Below the pieces are notes generated by a model, which worked only from the letters and a program-made list of their open reading frames with translations, searched no databases and was not told the DNA's origin. Both the position numbers and the translations under genes were made by a program. 64,000 bases of DNA, from positions 768,001 through 832,000 of the forward strand of contig CAVUAK010000001.1 of assembly GCA_963739455.1 (NCBI GenBank). The letters are read 5' to 3'. Origin of the DNA: an uncultured Gemmatimonadales bacterium (GTDB lineage Bacteria > Gemmatimonadota > Gemmatimonadetes > Gemmatimonadales > GWC2-71-9). Shown one piece after another: positions 15,981 through 24,836 of this stretch. The number at the start of each line of letters is the position of its first letter. Positions within the stretch are counted from its first letter, which is position 1.

Positions 15981-17144
15981 TCATCTCCTCACGATCTCCG
16001 CAACGAATGGAAGGTGGTCCGATCCATAGTCATCACCCACATGCGCGCCGACAGCCTTCAGCTCGTCATCCAGCAATACGTGATCAATGCGCACCTCGAT
16101 CCAGCCGTTGAGCTTGGTGAATCCCCAGCCGTTGCCGGAGGCGTTGAATGCATCGGTAAGGCCACCCCAGTACTGCTGCCAGATGATGCTCTCGACCGGG
16201 AGGTTGAAGTCACCCAGCACGATCCGCGGTGGCGTCGTCGAGTCGATCCACCGGCGGACGGCGCGTGATTCGGTATCGCGCAGGATGTTGTTCGCGTCGA
16301 TGAGCCGCGGCGCATTGGAGGGATCGGAGAGAAGGTGCTGCACGCCGTGTCGAGGCGTCTCGAGGTGCAGGACAAACACCGTGACCGTGCCGATCGGTGC
16401 CATGACCTCGTAGCGTGCCGCCGCGGCCGACCCGCCCGCTGCCTGGAAGTCCCGTGCTGCCATGCGGCGTGGCGGTGCCCGCAGCGGATACCGGCTCAGG
16501 AAGCAGGTGCCACCTGCGGTATCGACTGCGGCCCAGCCTTCCAGGCTGCCGAGGGCGTCGCGCATGGCCGGACCGCATTCCTGGAACCCGGCGATATCGG
16601 GACGCGTCGCTTCGAGCAGCTCCTTGAGCCGCAGCGACACGACACTCCCGTTCTCGACATTGAAGGTCAGGATGCGAATCGGTGCCTTGGGATGCCAGAG
16701 CGGTGCCGTGCTCAGCCGTCCACCCATGACGGGACCGACCACAATAAGCGCTGCGAGCCCGATGGGGATCAGTGCCTGGCGTCGCCACAAGAGCGCGAGA
16801 GCAGCCAGCAGAGCGACGGGCAGCAACCATGGCCAGCGCCCCGAGTAGATGAGCGCGGTACCCCACCAGGTGCGATCGCCGAAGAAGCGATAGGCCCAGG
16901 CCAGGAAGAGCATGAACATCACGAGCAGCCAACCGACGCCATCGAGCGGCGTCAGGACCACCTTCCGGATCCGGAGGCGCGAGTGCGGTGCGGCACCGCG
17001 GACCCACTGCGCAAGGCGCGCGGTCCGCAGTCGGTCGACCGGGGACTTGCAGACCGGACAGCGTGCCGGCGCCCAGTAGCGACCGGGATCGACGGCAACG
17101 CGATGGCGTCGGGAGCATTGAAAGACGTAGCGGGGTTCAGCCAT
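15981..17144 (-). CDS. Membrane-anchored endonuclease/exonuclease/phosphatase family protein with N-terminal Zn-ribbon
   Basis: LTFNV, FQE, GDFN, IDHV, SDHLP catalytic motifs; three TM segments; N-terminal CxxxH...CPVC. Confidence 0.88.
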   Translation of the reverse strand: MAEPRYVFQCSRRHRVAVDPGRYWAPARCPVCKSPVDRLRTARLAQWVRGAAPHSRLRIRKVVLTPLDGVGWLLVMFMLFLAWAYRFFGDRTWWGTALIYSGRWPWLLPVALLAALALLWRRQALIPIGLAALIVVGPVMGGRLSTAPLWHPKAPIRILTFNVENGSVVSLRLKELLEATRPDIAGFQECGPAMRDALGSLEGWAAVDTAGGTCFLSRYPLRAPPRRMAARDFQAAGGSAAAARYEVMAPIGTVTVFVLHLETPRHGVQHLLSDPSNAPRLIDANNILRDTESRAVRRWIDSTTPPRIVLGDFNLPVESIIWQQYWGGLTDAFNASGNGWGFTKLNGWIEVRIDHVLLDDELKAVGAHVGDDYGSDHLPFVAEIVRR

Positions 17145-17193
17145 AGGCGGCGAAAGGTAGGGCCGTGCCCGTCAAAGCCGGTATACTCCTTAC

Positions 17194-17904
17194 ATGACTT
17201 CACATCGTGTCGCCCTCGTCACCGGTGCCACCGAGGGTATCGGTCGCGCCGTCGCCTTCGCGCTCGGCCGGGCCGGCTGGTCGGTGGGCGTGTGTGCCCG
17301 GACCGCCGACCGGCTCGAACGGCTATTGCTCGAACTGCGCGGCGCCGGCATCCATGCCGATGGCCTTCCCACCGACGTGGGCAACGAGACCCAGGTGAAG
17401 GCACTCACCGCGCACGTCAGCAAGGTGCTCGGCCCGATCGATACGCTGGTGAACAATGCCGGTGTGCTCATCGCGAAGACCATCAGCGAGCTCAGCATTG
17501 AAGACTGGGACGCCACGATGCGCACGAATGTGCGGAGCCTGTTCCTGGTGACACGCGAAGTGCTGCCCGGCATGCGCACCGCCGGACGGGGCGACATCGT
17601 GAATGTGGCGAGCCTGGCAGGCAAGAACGGTTTCATTGGTGGCACCGCATACGTGGCATCCAAGCACGCGGTTCTCGGCTTCAGCAAGGCGCTGATGCTG
17701 GAGGAGCGCAAGAACAACATCCGCGTCATCGCGGTATGTCCGGGATCGGTGGCGACCGCCATGCTCGAGAACCAGCCGCTGCTGCCCTCCAGGCCGGAGA
17801 AGATCCTCCGCGCCGAGGATGTTGCGGAGACGATCCTCACCACGCTGCGCCTGCCTGGCCGCGCGCTGGTGAGCGAGCTCGACATCCGCCCCACCAATCC
17901 GTGA
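17194..17904 (+). CDS. SDR family oxidoreductase
   Basis: TGATEGIG, NNAG, YVASK. Confidence 0.93.
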   Translation: MTSHRVALVTGATEGIGRAVAFALGRAGWSVGVCARTADRLERLLLELRGAGIHADGLPTDVGNETQVKALTAHVSKVLGPIDTLVNNAGVLIAKTISELSIEDWDATMRTNVRSLFLVTREVLPGMRTAGRGDIVNVASLAGKNGFIGGTAYVASKHAVLGFSKALMLEERKNNIRVIAVCPGSVATAMLENQPLLPSRPEKILRAEDVAETILTTLRLPGRALVSELDIRPTNP

Positions 17905-18123
17905 GCCGCATCCCGGACCGGTGGGCGGTGACCCGCTGTGTCTGCCAGCGCATGACCTTCGACAGCCTGCTTCGCCTTGCACGGGAGTACGGCTGGACCA
18001 TTGAGGAGCTGGTGGCGAACACCGGCTGCGGCGACCAGTGCGGCATGTGTCATCCGTACCTCGAGAAGATGCTGGAGACCGGCGAAACCAGGTTTCGCAC
18101 CGTTCCCGTAACGCCCTGGCTGA
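17901..18123 (+). CDS. Bfd-like (2Fe-2S)-binding small protein (3' end uncertain)
   Basis: RCVC...TGCGDQCGMCHPYL; GTG overlaps the SDR stop; frame runs on, suggesting a lost stop or indel near 18110-18123. Confidence 0.7.
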
Positions 18124-18153
18124 CCTTTCCCTGGCTGCGATTACCTTGGGACC

Positions 18154-18498
18154 ATGCACGTCGTTCGGTGACCTTCCTCCGTACCCTCCTGCTGAGCCTG
18201 TTCGTGCTCGGCGGCCCGGGGCTGCCCCTCATCGATGCGGTGGTGTGGCATGGATCGGGATCGCAGCAGGTGGCAGGGTCGCGACTGGACGAGCAAGGTG
18301 CGGCCCGTCCCCACTGCCGATACCTGTTCGCTCGCGGCGCCGATTCCGGTCCCCGGACCAGTGCCGTGCAGTGCTTCCCCGGTACCGGCGGTGCGCGGCA
18401 CCGAGCGCGCTGTTGCTGAGCCTTCGCAGGTCGTTCGCGTCACCATCACCCCTGATCGCAGCACACGTCCTCGAGCCCCGCCCGCATTCTCCGCCTGA
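18154..18498 (+). CDS. DUF2946/CruR/CutF-like leader protein with C-terminal RAPP motif (apparent frameshifts)
   Basis: Hydrophobic N-terminus (FLRTLLLSLFVLGGPG), H-x-D-x-C segment across an indel near 18314, Pro-rich linker, RPRAPPAFSA-stop, 124 nt upstream of a TonB receptor. Confidence 0.65.
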
Positions 18499-18622
18499 CC
18501 TGAGTCACATCCGACACATATCGCAGCGCTGAGCGACCCGTGCTTCACGGGCCGTCGGCATTGCCAGGCCGCTCCTCGACCGACCCTGAACCGGTGGTCT
18601 GGGGCACAGGTGGAGATCACAC

Positions 18623-20907
18623 ATGTACACATTGCTCCTCGCCGTGGCGGTGGCATCTGCCTCGGCCAGCAGTTCGACGCCCGTCGACGCTGCACAGCTC
18701 CGCGGAAAGGTGACTGACTTTCACGGCAATCCCCTGGCGAACGTGCGCGTGACGGTCGTGGAGTTTTCGCGACTGGTCCTGACCGACCAGGAGGGGAACT
18801 ACGCCCTGTCCAGCCTGCCCACCGGCAGCTATACCGTCACCTTCGCACTACTGGGCTTCGGGCCACAGACGCGGAGAATCGTGCTGGGCACGGAGGTCCT
18901 GACGCTCAACGTCACCCTGAACGAATCACTCGTCGAACTGCCGCCGCTGCAGGTCACGGCCAGCCCCAACGGGTCGAGTGCGCTCACGTCGCCCCAGCCG
19001 GTGTCGGTCCTGAGCGGGGCACGCCTTCAGGCCGATCACACCGCCAACCTGGGCGAGACGATCGACAAGATCTCCGGGCGTCTCGGCGTGGACCACCGGT
19101 GCCGGGATCGGCAAGCCGGTGATCCGCGGGCTGTCGTCGAACAACGTGCTGGTCCTCGCGAATGGCCAGCGCACCGACACCCAGCAGTTTGCCGACGAGC
19201 ACAGCCCCAACATCGAGACGTCCGGCGCCGAGCGAATCGAGGTGATCAAGGGACCGGCGAGCGTGCTGTACGGTTCGGACGCGGTGGGTGGCGTGGTGAA
19301 CATCATTCCGCCTGCCATCCCCGATGCGATCGGGGTGAAGGGGAGTGTCGGCGGCAAGGTGCTTGGTGCCTATGGGACGAACAACACCAACCCCGACGGG
19401 AGCCTGCTGCTGAATGGTGCCAGCGGTGGCTTCGGCTTCCGGGCGGCACTGGTCGGCCGGAACGCCGACAACATCGAGACGCCGGTCGGTACGCTGTACA
19501 ACACCGGCTTCTCGACCGTGGATGGAAGCGTCGGAGCGGGATACAAGGGAACATGGGGCACGGTGAAGGCGTCGTACACGCATCGCTATGAGACGCTGCA
19601 ACTGATGGACGAGGACCCTGCCGCCACGCCGTTCCAGCACGTCACCGACAACCGCTTCAACATCGGTGTTGTAGCCCCCACAGGCGGTGCCTCGCGGATC
19701 GAGGCCAACCTCGGCTTTGACAGCAACCGGCGACGCGAGTTCGAGTCGGCGGGCGACACTGAGGCTGACGTCGCCTCAGGACTGCAGAACAGTCTCTGGA
19801 CCAGCGACGTCCACTACCACAACAACCCGATCGGCCCCTTTGCCGGAACGCTCGGCGTGCAGGGCTATCACAATGGCTGGGATCGATTCGGCACCGAGAA
19901 GTTCCTCCCCCCGAACCAGGCCTTCGGCATCGGCGTGTTCGGGTTCGAGCAGGCCGACGTGGGCCGGTTCACGCTCTCGTTCGGGTTGCGGTACGACTTC
20001 CGGCAACTGGATGTGGACGAGGCGGAGGTGGGCCGGGAGGATCGTAATCGCATCGTTCCGGAGCAGACCCGGACGCTACAACTCGGTGACCGGCAACATC
20101 GGCGCGCTCTACCACATCGGGCAGTCGGTTGCGATTGTGGCCAACCTGGGCCGCGCCTTCCGGGCGCCGAATATCTTCGAACTCTTCGGCTATGGTGTTC
20201 ACGAGGGGGTACCGCAGTTCGTCATCGGCAACGACTCGCTGCAGAACCAGACCTCATGGACCACGGACCTGGCGCTGCGGGTACAGAGCGGGCGGGTCCA
20301 GCTGGAGGCAGGCGGATTCTACACCCCGATTCATGACTTCATCTATTCCAACCCGACGTCCGGGCGAGATACGAGCTCAACGGACCCGGAGGCCTCGGGG
20401 CTGCAGGAATTCGTGATTACCCAGGGCGATGCACTGTTCTACGGGTTCGAGGTGGGCGCAGACTACCACCCGACCCACTGGCTGGAGCTTGGCGCCGGCA
20501 GCGATTACACCTACGCGCAGAACCGGGTGCTGGACCAGCCGATCCCGTGGATTGCGCCGTTGCGCGTGCGCTACTCGGCGAAGGTGACCGGTGGCAGCGG
20601 GACCTGGTATCGTGCCCCGTACTTCTCGGTGAGCGGATCGACGGTCATGGCCAAGGTCGCATACCGCGTCGACCCGAACGAGCTCGAGCCCGGAACCCCG
20701 ATTCCCGGCGGCTACACGCTCGTCAGTCTCGGCGCGGGCGCGCAACTGGCGGTCGGTGGCCAGGTGATCTCCGTCGATCTCGACCTGCTCAACGCCTTCA
20801 ACCAGCAGTACGTCTGGTTCCTCAATCGCTACCGCAACTTCGTCGAGGACAGCCGGAATCTCGGCATGGGCCGCAACTTCATGCTGCGGCTGGCGTGGAC
20901 CTTCTGA
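18623..20907 (+). CDS. TonB-dependent receptor with N-terminal carboxypeptidase-like regulatory domain (two apparent frameshifts)
   Basis: Signal peptide; plug motifs IRGLS, ERIEVIKGPASVLYGSDAVGGVVNII; NLGRAFRAP; C-terminal GRNFMLRLAWTF; indels near 19078 and 20072. Confidence 0.9.
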
Positions 20908-20964
20908 GTGGCGGGCGGGTTGGCCTCCTGTGAAGCTGTGACCCGCTGGGACGTCCTAGGATCC

Positions 20965-21537
20965 ATGAAGCCAATCAATGCGACCGGACGCGTCCTCTGC
21001 TTCGCGGCCCTCGCCGTTGCAGCCACTGGCTGCAGCGGCGACAATGGGCCGGTGAAGGAGCCGGAGACGCCGGAGCTCATCAACCAGGTGACGCTCACCC
21101 TCATGCGACGACAGGACAGCACCTTCCAGCACGCCACCATCGTGGACCCTGACGGGCCCGGCCCGCTGCCCTGGCGGGACCAGGCCGGGGCGTTGCACGT
21201 CGTGCCCAACGCTTCGTACACTGCGACCATCACCCTCACGAACTCGACCACGTCACCGCCGGTGGATGTCACGCCGCTCATCAACTCCAGGAAATTGCAG
21301 CACCGCTTCTTCTACACCATGCTGCCGGAGAATGGCGTCATCGCGACGGACCTGACCATCGACAGCAACAGCGCGGAATACGGCGAGGCATTTGCCATTC
21401 ATGTGCCGGCCGATGTCGAGTTGCGAAGCTGGACGCTGGAGGTGCTGCTCAGTCACTACGAGGGAGATACGAAGGGAAACGGCCTGGTGCCCGGGTCACT
21501 GGCCGACGTGGACGTGACCTTCGTGCTAACGACCTGA
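20965..21537 (+). CDS. Lipoprotein resembling TonB-receptor-associated putative metal-binding lipoproteins
   Basis: ATGC lipobox; PELINQVTLTL...DPDGPG, HRFFY, LSH motifs; directly downstream of the TonB receptor. Confidence 0.65.
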   Translation: MKPINATGRVLCFAALAVAATGCSGDNGPVKEPETPELINQVTLTLMRRQDSTFQHATIVDPDGPGPLPWRDQAGALHVVPNASYTATITLTNSTTSPPVDVTPLINSRKLQHRFFYTMLPENGVIATDLTIDSNSAEYGEAFAIHVPADVELRSWTLEVLLSHYEGDTKGNGLVPGSLADVDVTFVLTT

Positions 21538-21540
21538 CGG

Positions 21541-22119
21541 TCACTGGAGGGCCACCTCCTGGACCTTGGTGCTGCCCGGCACGAAGTAGAGGGAATAGCG
21601 CCTTTCATTTGCCACGTTGAGCAGGTTCACGATGTTCTGCTGGCTCGGGAACACCTCGAAGAGCAGGTCATTGCGTACGCCGAGTCTTCCTGGTGCCTTC
21701 GCGACCGGATATTCCACGATGAACCAGATCATCGGCTGGCCCTGCTCGTCGGTCTCGATGCCCGAGGCCTGGACGGAACCCTTGAGCCGGGCGCCGTCGG
21801 CCTCCACCCATACCCGCTCCGCCAGGTAGCCGGCGAAAAGGGAGTCGGTATCCTTGCTGGTGCCGAGGTCGAGCTTCTGCAGCTTGTAGAACCTGGCCAG
21901 CCCCGCCTGCAGGTCGTCCTTGAAAAGGCGAACACGGGAGACGATGGCGGCACTGTCCACCGCCATGCGGGTGAGGGTGACGTGGACGTCATGAGTCGGC
22001 AGTCGACTGTCGGCAGTCGGCAGAGAGCCTGCAGTCATCGAAAGGACAAATGCTCCCAGGCCCCAGAGCGGCCGACTGATGACTTTCTGCCGACTGCCGA
22101 CCGCCGACTGACGACTCAA
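21541..22119 (-). CDS. DUF6702-like secreted protein
   Basis: HDVHVTLT...RLFKDDL...NDLLFEVFPSQQNIV pattern downstream of the M1 peptidase; TTG start at 22119 inferred. Confidence 0.7.
   Translation of the reverse strand: MSRQSAVGSRQKVISRPLWGLGAFVLSMTAGSLPTADSRLPTHDVHVTLTRMAVDSAAIVSRVRLFKDDLQAGLARFYKLQKLDLGTSKDTDSLFAGYLAERVWVEADGARLKGSVQASGIETDEQGQPMIWFIVEYPVAKAPGRLGVRNDLLFEVFPSQQNIVNLLNVANERRYSLYFVPGSTKVQEVALQ
21994..22116. repeat. Inverted GACTGCC/GACTGAC heptamer arrays inside the 5' end of the DUF6702 gene
   Basis: AGTCGGC AGTCGAC TGTCGGC AGTCGGC (21994-22021) versus CTGCC GACTGCC GACCGCC GACTGAC GACT (22086-22115). Confidence 0.8.
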
Positions 22120-22120
22120 C

Positions 22121-24229
22121 TCACGATACTCCGGCACCTTCAGCGGTCCACGTGTTGTTCTCCCGGTTCACGTCAGCAAAGACTTCGTTCGGGTCCACCA
22201 CAACCTTGGTCACCACCTTGTCGGTGAAGAACCCGTATTGGTGCTTGAGCTCGTTCTGGCGCCAGGCATCGGCCGGTATCTTCACGAACTCGGTGGTGCC
22301 GTCGGAATATGTGACGTTCATCTGCACCGGCAGCAGGATGCCACCCTTGTTCTCGATGGTGATCCGCACGTAGTTCTTGCCGCGCGCCGTCGTGCCGATC
22401 AGTGAATCGGCCGACTGCTCCTCCACCGACGTCACCGCCTGGTCGTTGGCATAGGTGGTGAAGAACCAGCCACGCCAGAAATAGTTGAGCTGCTCGCCGC
22501 CGCCCTCCTCCAGCGAGCGGAAGAAGTCCGCCGGCTGCGGCTGCTTGAACGCCCACTTGGTGGAGTATTCGCGAAACGCCTGGTCGAACAGCTCCGGGCC
22601 CATGATCTGTTCCCGCAGCATCACGAGGCCTGCCGCCGGCTTGCCGTACCCGTTGTTGCCGAACGCGCGGTGGATCTCCTCCGACTCGGTCATGATCGGT
22701 ACCTGGTCGGGGTCCTGCATGTACTTCACGATGTTCTTGGCGGGGCCGCGATTGCTCGGATAGCCCTTCTCCCAGTCCTGCTCCGCGTAGTACTGCAGGA
22801 AGCTGTTCAGGCCCTCGTCCATCCAGGTCCACTTCCGCTCATCGGACGCCACGATCATCGGGAACCAGTTGTGTCCCACCTCGTGAATCGTCACCGAGAT
22901 CAGGGCATGCTCCACCTGCGGGGTGTATGAGCCGTCAGGCTGCGGGCGCGCGCCGCAGAAGGCGATCATCGGGTATTCCATGCCGAACACCGGGCCATGG
23001 ATGTTTGACGCCTTCGGGTACGGGTACGGGAACGCCATGCGCCCGTAGCTCTTCATCGTCTGGATGATGGCCTTGGTCGATACCTTGTCCCAGAGCGGCA
23101 TCGCGTCGCGCGGGTAGAGTGAGTGCATCTCGATCGGCTTTTGCTCCGGCTTGTACTTGAAGCCGGCGGCGTCCCACACGAACGTCTTCGACGACGCCCA
23201 GGCGAAGTCGCGGACGTTCTCCGCCCGGAAGTGCCAGGTGAGCGGCGCCGTGCCCGCGGGGCGTGAGCCGGGCGTCATCACCTCATCCGCATTGATGATG
23301 AACTTCGGCGTCTCCGAGGTGAATGCCTCCGCCAGGCGGGAGCGCTGTGTTGACGTGAGCACTTCAGTGGGGTTCACGATCACGCCGGTGCCTTGCACGA
23401 TATGGTCGTGCGGCACCGTCAGGCTCACGTCGTAGTTGCCGAAGTTGAGGTAGAACTCGCCCTGGCCCAGGAACTGGTCGGTCTGCCAGCCGTTCACGTC
23501 GTCGTACACCGATGCGCGCGGATACCACTGCGCCATCTCGTAGAGCCATCCGTCCTTCACCAGCTCCCGCACGCCGCGCCCGTTACGACTGTTCTCGGGT
23601 ACGGCGTACGACCAGTCGATCTCCAGCACCGCCGACGCACCCGATGCGAGTGGCGTGGGCAGCGGAATCTTCACCAGGGTTCCGTTGATCACGTAGGGCA
23701 CATCGACCAGTTGCGCCTTCCCCCTGGCGCTCGCCGGCACCTGTACCTGCACCCGCCCGAGACGGTATCCGCCATCGAACGGCTCGGGCAGCAGGAACTT
23801 GCGTGCTTGCGGGCTGATCTTCGCCGGCAGCGCCGACTCGGACGCGATCGTGCGGCTCACCTTGGGATCGTCGATGTTCTGGTCCAGCTGGAACCAGAGG
23901 TACGGCAGCGCGTCGGGCGAGTTGTTGTGATAGGTGACGCGCTCGACGCCGGTGAGCCGGTGTGCCGCTGTATCCAGTGAGGCGCGGATGCTGTAGTCCA
24001 CGCGCTGTTGCCAGTACCGGGGCCCTGGCGATCCGCTTGCCGTACGCACGTCGTTGGGATCGGGCCACTCCTCGATGGCGCGGAAGTTGGACTGGTTGGT
24101 CTTCGGGTTGGGGCCGGCGTTGAGCCACTGCTGCGCCGCGGCGGGCCGGGCACCAACTGAGACGAGGAGCACCAGTCCGGCGACGGCGCGGACAGGACAA
24201 AGGCGAGGTACCATCAGCATGCGGGACAT
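22121..24229 (-). CDS. M1 family metallopeptidase, secreted
   Basis: GMEYP, HEVGHNWF...WMDEG zinc motif; YWQQRVDY N-terminus. Confidence 0.93.
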   Translation of the reverse strand: MSRMLMVPRLCPVRAVAGLVLLVSVGARPAAAQQWLNAGPNPKTNQSNFRAIEEWPDPNDVRTASGSPGPRYWQQRVDYSIRASLDTAAHRLTGVERVTYHNNSPDALPYLWFQLDQNIDDPKVSRTIASESALPAKISPQARKFLLPEPFDGGYRLGRVQVQVPASARGKAQLVDVPYVINGTLVKIPLPTPLASGASAVLEIDWSYAVPENSRNGRGVRELVKDGWLYEMAQWYPRASVYDDVNGWQTDQFLGQGEFYLNFGNYDVSLTVPHDHIVQGTGVIVNPTEVLTSTQRSRLAEAFTSETPKFIINADEVMTPGSRPAGTAPLTWHFRAENVRDFAWASSKTFVWDAAGFKYKPEQKPIEMHSLYPRDAMPLWDKVSTKAIIQTMKSYGRMAFPYPYPKASNIHGPVFGMEYPMIAFCGARPQPDGSYTPQVEHALISVTIHEVGHNWFPMIVASDERKWTWMDEGLNSFLQYYAEQDWEKGYPSNRGPAKNIVKYMQDPDQVPIMTESEEIHRAFGNNGYGKPAAGLVMLREQIMGPELFDQAFREYSTKWAFKQPQPADFFRSLEEGGGEQLNYFWRGWFFTTYANDQAVTSVEEQSADSLIGTTARGKNYVRITIENKGGILLPVQMNVTYSDGTTEFVKIPADAWRQNELKHQYGFFTDKVVTKVVVDPNEVFADVNRENNTWTAEGAGVS

Positions 24230-24233
24230 CCGT

Positions 24234-24836
24234 TCAGGAGACAGGGTTCAGTCGATCAATGATCATGGTCATGGCGACGGCCATCGTGCCACCGCAGAGA
24301 ATCAGCACCCACTCGCGACGCGTGAGACGGAGCACCCGCACCGCGAGCACGCCAAGCAGCATCACGATGGCGACGATGAACAGCTGCCCCACCTCGAGGC
24401 CGACGTTGAAGGCAAGCAATGGTTTCACGATCGATTCCTCACCGCCCAGCAGGCTCCGGAGGAAGGTGGAGAATCCCAGCCCGTGAATCAGCCCGAACGC
24501 GGCCGCGAGAAGGTACTGCGGTAGCTGTGATCCTGTGGGACCGCCGTCCTCAGTGTCCCCCTTCGACAGCACGATCGCGGCAATGCTCGTAAGCACGATG
24601 GTGACGGGGATCAGCACCTCGACCAGCTGCGAGTTCACCCGGACCAGGTCGAGCGTGGCCAGCGCCAGCGTCACCGAGTGACCCAGGGTGAATGCCGTCA
24701 CCAGCCAGATCAGCCGGCGCCACGCCACCGGCGGGTACGCCGCCGTCAGCGCTGCCACGAACAGGATGTGGTCGTACGCCCGCGGATCGGCGATATGGCC
24801 AAAACCGAGGCGGAGATACACCAGGAATTCGGACAG
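24234..24836 (-). CDS. HupE/UreJ family protein
   Basis: GFGHI...DHILF, TAFTLGHSVTL, FGLIHGLGF, FNVGLEVGQ; AAGGAGGAG SD precedes CTG at 24836 (alternative GTG 24821). Confidence 0.9.
   Translation of the reverse strand: MSEFLVYLRLGFGHIADPRAYDHILFVAALTAAYPPVAWRRLIWLVTAFTLGHSVTLALATLDLVRVNSQLVEVLIPVTIVLTSIAAIVLSKGDTEDGGPTGSQLPQYLLAAAFGLIHGLGFSTFLRSLLGGEESIVKPLLAFNVGLEVGQLFIVAIVMLLGVLAVRVLRLTRREWVLILCGGTMAVAMTMIIDRLNPVS

Follow-up and report, generated by a model that had tools for sequence, protein, structure and literature searches.

Sensing of a metal through a stalled ribosome has been demonstrated for copper, in the leader peptides CruR (PMC9426467) and CutF (bioRxiv 10.1101/2025.02.05.636593). 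CruR (Bp2923) of Bordetella pertussis is the prototype of the Pfam family DUF2946/PF11162 (PMC9426467), and its arrest at an RAPP motif has been seen by toeprint (PMC12992588). In RAPP arrest peptides of the ApdA/ApdP/CruR type the arrest depends on the Arg, and the two Pro codons occupy the P and A sites. CutF of Rhodobacter capsulatus is a Sec-targeted nascent sensor whose stall unmasks the downstream ribosome-binding site, and in both respects resembles what we propose below; it differs in stalling at PPP, in depending on EF-P and in being induced by Cu to switch on detoxification, whereas the leader described here carries RAPP and precedes an importer (bioRxiv 10.1101/2025.02.05.636593). 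CutF-like proteins have been grouped into 29 sequence clusters; their sites are Cys, His or mixed, they lie in front of TolC/CzcA and TonB genes, and leaders with His only or with both Cys and His, as well as metals other than copper, have been proposed already (PMC9973294). A DUF2946 gene also heads the zinc-induced czrCBA operon of Caulobacter (PMC4176598). SecM, ApdA and ApdP share RAGP/RAPP arrest and release by force with the scheme proposed here, but monitor protein export and have no metal motif (PMC12992588).

A proteome-wide RAPP/RGPP survey indicates that signal-bearing RAPP uORFs before TonB receptors are general in Gram-negative bacteria (PMC12992588). Its source table includes at least nine RAPP uORFs before receptors labelled 'zinc-regulated' and, by eye, at least one apparent member of the family described below (MBA3498232.1); in the part of that paper covered here, neither the family nor its ligands, a role for zinc or an anti-Shine-Dalgarno codon bias is described. 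The term 'Gemmatimonad' is absent from the main text of PMC12992588, and neither 'Gemmatimonad' nor 'zinc' occurs in that of PMC9973294. In the open-licence literature we found no paper on a zinc-sensing arrest peptide, on such sensing in Gemmatimonadota or on this leader family. RAPP leaders before TonB receptors are a published class; new here are that the codons of RAPP and of the tail behind it are biased toward the anti-Shine-Dalgarno word CTCC, and that in a model a ribosome stalled there makes the receptor's start site cheaper to open.

The leader gene and its locus

We analysed a 64,000-nucleotide stretch (the window) of the genome of an uncultured Gemmatimonadales bacterium. The features of the locus, all on the plus strand, are as follows.

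18154..18498, +, leader gene (uORF) of 114 codons, read across two apparent assembly indels (DNA alignment, intact orthologues, family-profile matches to both halves)
18168..18251, +, hydrophobic signal/anchor segment ending in D-A-x3-H (hydropathy; one frame from 18168)
18312..18327, +, H-A-D-T-C candidate metal motif, spanning the extra base 18315 (homologue conservation)
18328..18471, +, Pro/Ala-rich spacer of 48 codons, conserved in length and free in sequence (homologue spacing)
18472..18483, +, R-A-P-P predicted arrest motif (read directly; arrest by analogy with RAPP in CruR and others)
18487..18492, +, predicted anti-Shine-Dalgarno UUCUCC in the leader's last codons (pairing probability 1.0; would lie inside the footprint of a ribosome stalled at RAPP)
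18537..18551, +, CCCGTG/CACGGG hairpin (18537-42 / 18546-51), tip of the intergenic arm (folding; not an intrinsic terminator)
18612..18616, +, receptor Shine-Dalgarno sequence (SD) GGAGA (read directly)
18623..20907, +, ZnuD-like TonB-dependent receptor with an N-terminal carboxypeptidase-regulatory-like domain (Pfam; ZnuD is the best PDB match)
20965..21537, +, predicted lipoprotein without a Pfam family, likely co-transcribed with the receptor (start placed from a lipobox-like sequence)

The start codon ATG (18154) and the stop TGA (18496-98) were read directly. RAPP is followed by four codons, the stop and then 124 nt to the receptor ATG at 18623. Asp 18234-36 and His 18249-51, at the end of the hydrophobic segment, are candidate membrane-proximal ligands; the segment reaches a Kyte-Doolittle 19-residue maximum of 1.88, and 78 of 97 leaders reach 1.6 or more. 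The candidate metal motif consists of CAC (His, 18312-14), the extra T at 18315 and next-frame Ala-Asp-Thr-Cys (18316-18327). A preliminary description of this DNA had joined two frames into a protein with a signal/TM segment, H-A-D-T-C, a Pro-rich spacer and RAPP, and each of these elements was found where it had been placed.

Frame breaks in the leader and the receptor

A DNA alignment with three congeners gave one extra base at 18315 and 1 or 4 missing bases at 18158-59, two indels that cancel in length. The single indel first proposed near 18314 thus corresponds to the extra T at 18315, while a second, at which the preliminary description had only hinted, is also needed. Because the alignment with the three congeners places both indels, the reading with His is right and an extra C in the homopolymer does not explain the break; the alternative placement of the extra base in the C run, which would remove the His, was ruled out in this way. 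Congeners G008 and G006 have an intact, single-ORF leader of 114 aa, and in four other few-contig congeners (G001, G003, G007, G009) the leader is broken, each time at a different place. A programmed frameshift was ruled out because the congeners are intact or broken elsewhere. Synonymous changes predominated in each of the two frames. Compared with the intact G008 copy, 24 codons of the first frame are identical, 17 differ synonymously and 8 non-synonymously, with 19 of 30 changes at third positions, and two tested pieces of the second frame have 10/6/4 and 15/4/4 codons in the same order.

The receptor is interrupted likewise. It lies in three frames relative to an intact 764-aa orthologue, which it matches in three HSPs at 76-82%, with breaks at about 19072 and at 20023-20075, and a near-identical public contig has one base fewer at 19072. 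The frame breaks in the leader are most likely assembly errors, which for 18315 we infer from the alignment, as neither a read of the two sequencing runs compared nor a contig spans that base.

The six frames of this genome contain 174 instances of RAPP one to six codons ahead of a stop, and 177 of AAPP. RAPP near a stop is thus not beyond chance on its own, and the case for the leader rests on its relatives and their conservation.

Conservation of the leader family

We searched 41 genomes for the receptor, which gave 30 loci, and leaders were sought upstream of these, i.e. they were found independently of leader sequence. The 13 closest receptor loci (46-100% identical, the window's own included) comprise two without upstream DNA and eleven with it, and in 10 of the eleven an ORF ends in RAPP three to four codons before its stop; the eleventh, without a leader, is the second of two tandem receptors. 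The preliminary description had named beforehand the absence of such an ORF from orthologous loci as evidence that would overturn it, and these loci do not bear that out. The 17 more distant loci have one leader of the same family, two H-x3-C-x2-C leaders (L014 and L019, with RSPP or RGPP 46 residues after the first Cys) and none in 14 cases. The latter two leaders (L014:587-946, + strand, and L019:3161-3598, - strand) bridge the family to canonical DUF2946, yet have no Pfam DUF2946 match.

A five-sequence profile retrieved 77 proteins, in which the His and Cys of H-x-[DE]-x-C are present in 77/77, the D/E in 76/77 and a RAPP end in 74, all 74 with a Cys-to-Arg distance of 46-48, although this count is partly circular as the profile itself contains these motifs. 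A 46-sequence profile gave a family of 462 clusters at 50% identity; 142 of the best 150 clusters were new, and of these 134 end in RAPP-like motifs and 132 have H-x3-C at 46-49 residues. Among 100 intact genomic leaders, H-x3-C is present in 97, D/E in the middle of the motif in 66 and the D/E..H that ends the hydrophobic segment in 96, and the spacer is 46-49 residues long. The Asp of H-A-D-T-C is less fixed than the His and Cys. CxxC was found in none of the 132 representatives with H-x3-C and in none of the 100 intact leaders, so that the replacement of CxxC by His/Asp/Cys, originally proposed for one locus, holds across the family.

At E 0.01 the family profile matched 108 of 401 genomes from the phylum, including 86 of 166 in the window's own taxonomic family; matches in other families of the phylum were mostly weak (E above about 1e-9). 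One leader-family match is labelled Gemmatimonadales, and the two nearest Atlas clusters are mostly Gemmatimonadota. Judged by these profiles, the leader family is a Gemmatimonadota family made up of a hydrophobic segment, D/E-x4-H, H-x3-C, 46-49 residues and RAPP. Pfam and NCBIfam gave no name for the leader. A structure model of one homologue (P0003) has helices at 3-21 and 24-35 followed by disorder (mean pLDDT 66, pTM 0.28); it gives no information on the metal site and no support either way for a mechanism. The analysis confirms that the leader is a real, unannotated and probably regulatory gene.

Relationship to DUF2946 and CutF-like leaders

The leader resembles CruR in being a small uORF with an export signal, a Cys motif, RAPP a few codons before the stop and a long spacer in front of the gene for a TonB-dependent importer, and in both a stall would be expected to mean that the importer is ON. 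The spacing also agrees, the 45 residues after the CruR Cys motif being equivalent to the leader's 48 after its Cys when counted from the fourth position of C-x-x-x (PMC9426467). The differences are that the leader has one Cys (H-x3-C) and no CxxC, that an extra D/E-x4-H ends its hydrophobic segment, that its receptor is ZnuD-like rather than copper-related and that its host belongs to the Gemmatimonadota. In addition, RAPP is written in rare codons forming an anti-Shine-Dalgarno sequence in the leader family, and in frequent codons in CruR.

As had been suggested at the outset, we compared the leaders with the DUF2946 profile. Of 46 family members 14 matched weakly (best E 9e-4), whereas the window's pieces and the close intact orthologues gave no match, and the Pfam gathering cut-off of 23.7 bits was not reached. 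Since it has no CxxC and does not reach this score, the leader is not filed as DUF2946, but it keeps DUF2946-type features, i.e. the C-terminal RAPP, the spacing of ~45 residues and the N-terminal hydrophobic segment. Canonical DUF2946-type leaders with H-A-D-H-C-x2-C appear in the source table of PMC12992588, which makes the leader's site the first half of a known motif; its single Cys matches the first Cys of H-x3-C-x2-C, at the spacing found in CruR. The variant site first described is therefore real as His/Asp/Cys without CxxC, and is better regarded as half of the canonical DUF2946 site than as an unrelated one. DUF2946/CruR leaders head copper-homeostasis operons and respond to copper; the genes adjoining the family's leaders are ZnuD-like, ZnuAB or CzcCBA-type.

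CutF-like proteins were defined by a length below 150 aa, PP within the last 15 residues, a signal peptide, a same-strand gene within 1000 nt and a Cys/His site (PMC9973294). The leader falls within this definition, with 114 aa, RAPP four residues from the end, a hydrophobic N-terminus and a gap of 124 nt.

Genes downstream of the leaders

Profile comparison of the window's receptor with solved structures gave ZnuD as the best match, extending over the whole length (E 2e-67), followed by a match at 7e-37 and by the copper receptor OprC at 2e-25; against the NCBIfam ZnuD model it scored 119 bits, far below the cut-off of 950. The high-affinity zinc site of ZnuD consists of Asp99, His100, Glu340 and His499 (PMC4557270). 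In the alignment with ZnuD of Neisseria meningitidis (PDB 4RDR), Asp99, His100 and His499 fall on Glu, His and His in the window's receptor, i.e. three of the four plug and loop ligands are kept directly, and Glu340 lies five columns from a Glu that is invariant in the receptors. The window's receptor lacks ZnuD's long His/Asp-rich loop 3 and has the additional N-terminal carboxypeptidase-like domain. On these matches it is probably a ZnuD-like, zinc-type importer rather than an OprC-like one. The nearest Atlas clusters to the lipoprotein encoded behind it are unnamed Bacteroidota proteins, with DUF4625 only at 0.80, and similar-looking lipoprotein genes follow related receptors in L072 and L081.

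The survey of downstream genes covered the 30 loci found with the receptor, the best 30 loci of the leader family and 60 regions chosen from the remaining strong matches. This gave 121 hit units with 107 distinct leaders ending in RAPP/RGPP and one without. Of the 107, 41 precede a receptor of the window's type and 14 a receptor of a second type, 27 a porin-like gene and 16 a TolC-like gene; the remaining 9 were unassigned. Where longer loci were inspected, genes of the ZnuA and ABC-3 families come after the porin-like gene, and three His ligands are present in 6/6 ZnuA-type binding proteins examined. A three-His site in such binding proteins marks zinc rather than Mn/Fe. The TolC-like genes are followed by CzcB and CusA/CzcA, over the cut-off in both of the two cases tested. 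The preliminary description had named Zn, Ni or Co as the possible metals; with the ZnuD-like receptor and the three-His ABC partners, zinc is the best supported of the three.

Two observations concern the downstream genes themselves. An exported protein of ~455 aa with a coiled N-terminal part and no Pfam/NCBIfam match (L066:640-1992 and 26 other loci) is the porin-like first gene of the ZnuA-ZnuB operons, and is a candidate zinc porin. In several genomes (L065, L073, L069, L077 and L078) a CzcCBA-type pump neighbours an uptake gene, and each of the two has a leader of its own.

Predicted RNA pairing between the arrest codons and the downstream start site

Folding of 18460-18640 predicted that leader codons 18487-92 pair with the receptor SD (z -2.2). 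Across the family, the first Pro codon of RAPP is CCT in 48 of 107 leaders and the Ala codon is GCT in 34 of 102, each compared with a background of 6-11%. CTCC is present in the stall window of 82/107 leaders, compared with 37 expected and a maximum of 58 in 200,000 simulations; it peaks at the Ala-Pro-Pro codons (positions +4 and +7), and was found in 143 of 428 upstream control windows. Excluding 21 of the 107 loci with an uncertain start or class and six with no clear SD left 80 for folding, in 42 of which the SD was predicted to pair with the stall window (41/72 uptake-type, 1/8 efflux-type). Own window/SD pairs were more stable than swapped ones, and remained so when the set was thinned to 42 de-replicated uptake loci (-18.1 vs -14.9 kcal/mol; 0/50,000 permutations), although the p-values of such statistics overstate the significance because the loci are kin and not independent.

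We modelled the consequences of a ribosome stalled at RAPP. The model predicted that the cost of opening the start site would fall by 3.1, 3.1, 4.3 and 5.1 kcal/mol in the four main downstream classes (87 loci), compared with a control value of -0.1 kcal/mol in 73 gene pairs of this genome. At the window locus the predicted cost fell from 14.5 to 6.4 kcal/mol, and this difference of 8.1 was matched by 1 of the 73 controls. Synonymous recoding lowered the cost in 67/87 loci; at the window recoded versions gave 8.3 +/- 2.1 kcal/mol, and 0/30 were as high as the real codons. The modelled effect was small in two close orthologues (0.7 and 1.1 kcal/mol), the receptor SD at the window was still 67% paired with the ribosome in place, and in a simple duplex test at this locus the real codons did no better than recoded ones (p 0.3). 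When seven congeners were folded to a consensus, with two short spacers misaligned, the central hairpin alone was recovered; the fold missed the helix between the anti-Shine-Dalgarno and SD sequences and had an unfavourable covariation term. Base-by-base covariation was weak: TCTCC accompanies the SD GGAGA in 11/25 loci vs 4/40 others, a comparison confounded by kinship, and the bases flanking TCTCC/GGAGA gave no clear covariation pattern. The CCCGTG/CACGGG hairpin to which attention was first drawn is present in the 124-nt spacer, but forms only the inner arm of the fold, the predicted switch being made of the last leader codons and the SD.

Efflux-type (TolC/CzcCBA) start sites were likewise predicted to be opened by the stall (mean 5.1 kcal/mol, n=11); an opposite RNA logic for the efflux operons was sought by the modelled stall and not found, and the own SD match of the efflux-type leaders was not better than chance.

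Rfam searches of 16500-22500 gave no credible riboswitch or known-RNA match, and no sigma-70 promoter or plus-strand terminator was found by scanning. The 3' ends of the leaders are rich in C across the family (46% C, 25% G), as would also suit a Rho loading site. With the same stall and sensor, the output could be mainly Rho-dependent termination, the C-rich end serving as a rut site and SD pairing being secondary. This is how CruR, the closest tested relative, which also precedes a TonB receptor across a long spacer, works (PMC9426467), and the 124-nt spacer at the window has no intrinsic terminator. A rut site, however, would not have to match the SD of its own locus, yet own window/SD pairs are the more stable; nor does it account for CTCC peaking at the Ala-Pro-Pro codons, and CruR differs in having RAPP in frequent codons. 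We regard Rho as rather unlikely to be the main output, and the two outputs can coexist.

Proposed mechanism and alternatives

We hold with high confidence that the leader is a metal-responsive arrest leader. By analogy with the systems above, we favour on balance the more specific reading that it is a cis-acting, zinc-responsive ribosome-arrest switch in front of the ZnuD-like receptor, in which zinc would release the stall. The gene, the conservation of its parts and their spacing, the metal-transport neighbours and the codon bias toward the anti-Shine-Dalgarno word are observed; Sec targeting, arrest, zinc bridging and pull, and closure of the SD are inferred from CruR, CutF and SecM. In the proposed sequence of events the hydrophobic N-terminus would take the ribosome to the Sec translocon, and the ribosome would stall at RAPP when the Cys is ~50 residues away from the active site, roughly at the point of reaching the periplasm. 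The lengths of the ribosome tunnel and translocon together place a residue ~50 from the active site near the periplasmic exit. At low zinc, the stalled ribosome would cover the anti-Shine-Dalgarno sequence in the leader's last codons, the receptor start site would open and the importer would be made. Translational coupling of this kind is established for SecM, where the stalled ribosome opens the start site of the next gene. When zinc is present, it could bridge the membrane-proximal Asp/His and the emerging His/Cys, and the resulting pull would release the stall; the anti-Shine-Dalgarno sequence would then pair with the SD and receptor translation would stop, possibly reinforced by Rho.

The 16 of 107 leaders that precede the TolC-like genes of CzcCBA-type pumps have the same ligands and spacing as the others. 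If zinc releases the stall, the opening of efflux start sites by a stall runs opposite to what zinc efflux calls for. Either the stall at the pump leaders is prolonged by metal, as in CutF, or the pumps are expressed at low metal. The zinc reading also has against it that the porin-ZnuA-ZnuB operon of this genome is not preceded by a leader of the family. This bears on the alternative that another metal (Ni, Co, Mn or Cu) is sensed, or that metal strengthens the stall, at least before the CzcCBA pumps. Cu induces the stall in CutF (bioRxiv 10.1101/2025.02.05.636593), and His-rich CutF-like leaders have been linked to Ni/Co genes (PMC9973294). In the leader tree, which was built quickly from few columns and left many forks open, the pump leaders are sister to receptor leaders of the same genomes (G026, G032), in a six-row clade with SH-aLRT 98. 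Copper genes (CopC, CopD, Sco) lie a few kb downstream in 3/18 long loci, and 45/100 intact leaders have an extra upstream Cys. Against this, the receptor in the window resembles ZnuD and not OprC, three-His sites are found in the ABC partners of the family, and an importer whose expression is induced by metal would follow an unusual logic. We consider this alternative unlikely, and retain zinc-dependent release of the stall as the preferred reading.

Two further explanations are very improbable. An arrest peptide could monitor Sec/YidC export capacity or the thiol redox state with no metal sensed, and for such monitoring ApdA, ApdP and SecM combine an export signal with RAPP-like motifs (PMC12992588). 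However, the four main downstream classes, which account for 98/107 loci, all consist of genes for outer-membrane transporters, and three of the classes are linked to metal transport; no sec gene turned up in them, and the His and Cys are invariant at a fixed distance. That the leader is a true pseudogene in this strain, or its motif a chance occurrence, would fit the two frame breaks and the genome-wide frequency of RAPP, but not the compensating indels, the similarly broken receptor, one of whose extra bases is absent from a near-identical contig, the congeners intact or broken elsewhere or the mostly synonymous changes.

A broader proposal is that in Gemmatimonadales the nascent chain is the main zinc sensor, i.e. 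that a single-Cys His/Asp/Cys leader, copied before each zinc-uptake and heavy-metal-efflux operon, replaces Zur, its arrest codons doubling as an anti-Shine-Dalgarno sequence and near-identical leaders acting with opposite signs on importers and pumps. We regard this proposal as doubtful. Exactly one strong Fur-family gene is present in 16 of 19 genomes of the family, two in one and none in two, and the Fur-family protein of the window's genome matches iron Fur structures best. A shared AT-rich palindrome (Zur/Fur-like box) preceded 1 of 97 leaders in a crude scan.

The family is a clean test case: its natural variants number in the hundreds, its ligands and spacing are fixed, its targets are of the zinc type and its arrest codons contain a predicted RNA switch. 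From it one could learn how the loss of a cysteine moves a scaffold from one metal to another, and how importers and pumps might both be driven by a single sensor. Such regulators are lost from annotation in error-prone assemblies.

Further observations at the leader loci

The genome's own porin-like/ZnuA/ZnuB operon (G000:C3:454900-458175; L135, L137) has no RAPP leader and a non-coding stretch of ~200 nt in front of it, with no Rfam match. In L072 (oriented 8201) RAPP is followed by 23 further leader codons, the last of them 21 nt short of the receptor, probably through a lost or mis-read stop. Directly before the leader in the window, and in congeners too, a small Cys-containing gene (17901-18111, +) overlaps the stop of an SDR gene; it has a weak BFD-like [2Fe-2S] match (E 2e-4, below the cut-off) and seemingly another indel near its end. 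On the other side, HupE/UreJ-2, peptidase M1 and DUF6702 genes (21541-24821, - strand) converge on the receptor operon.
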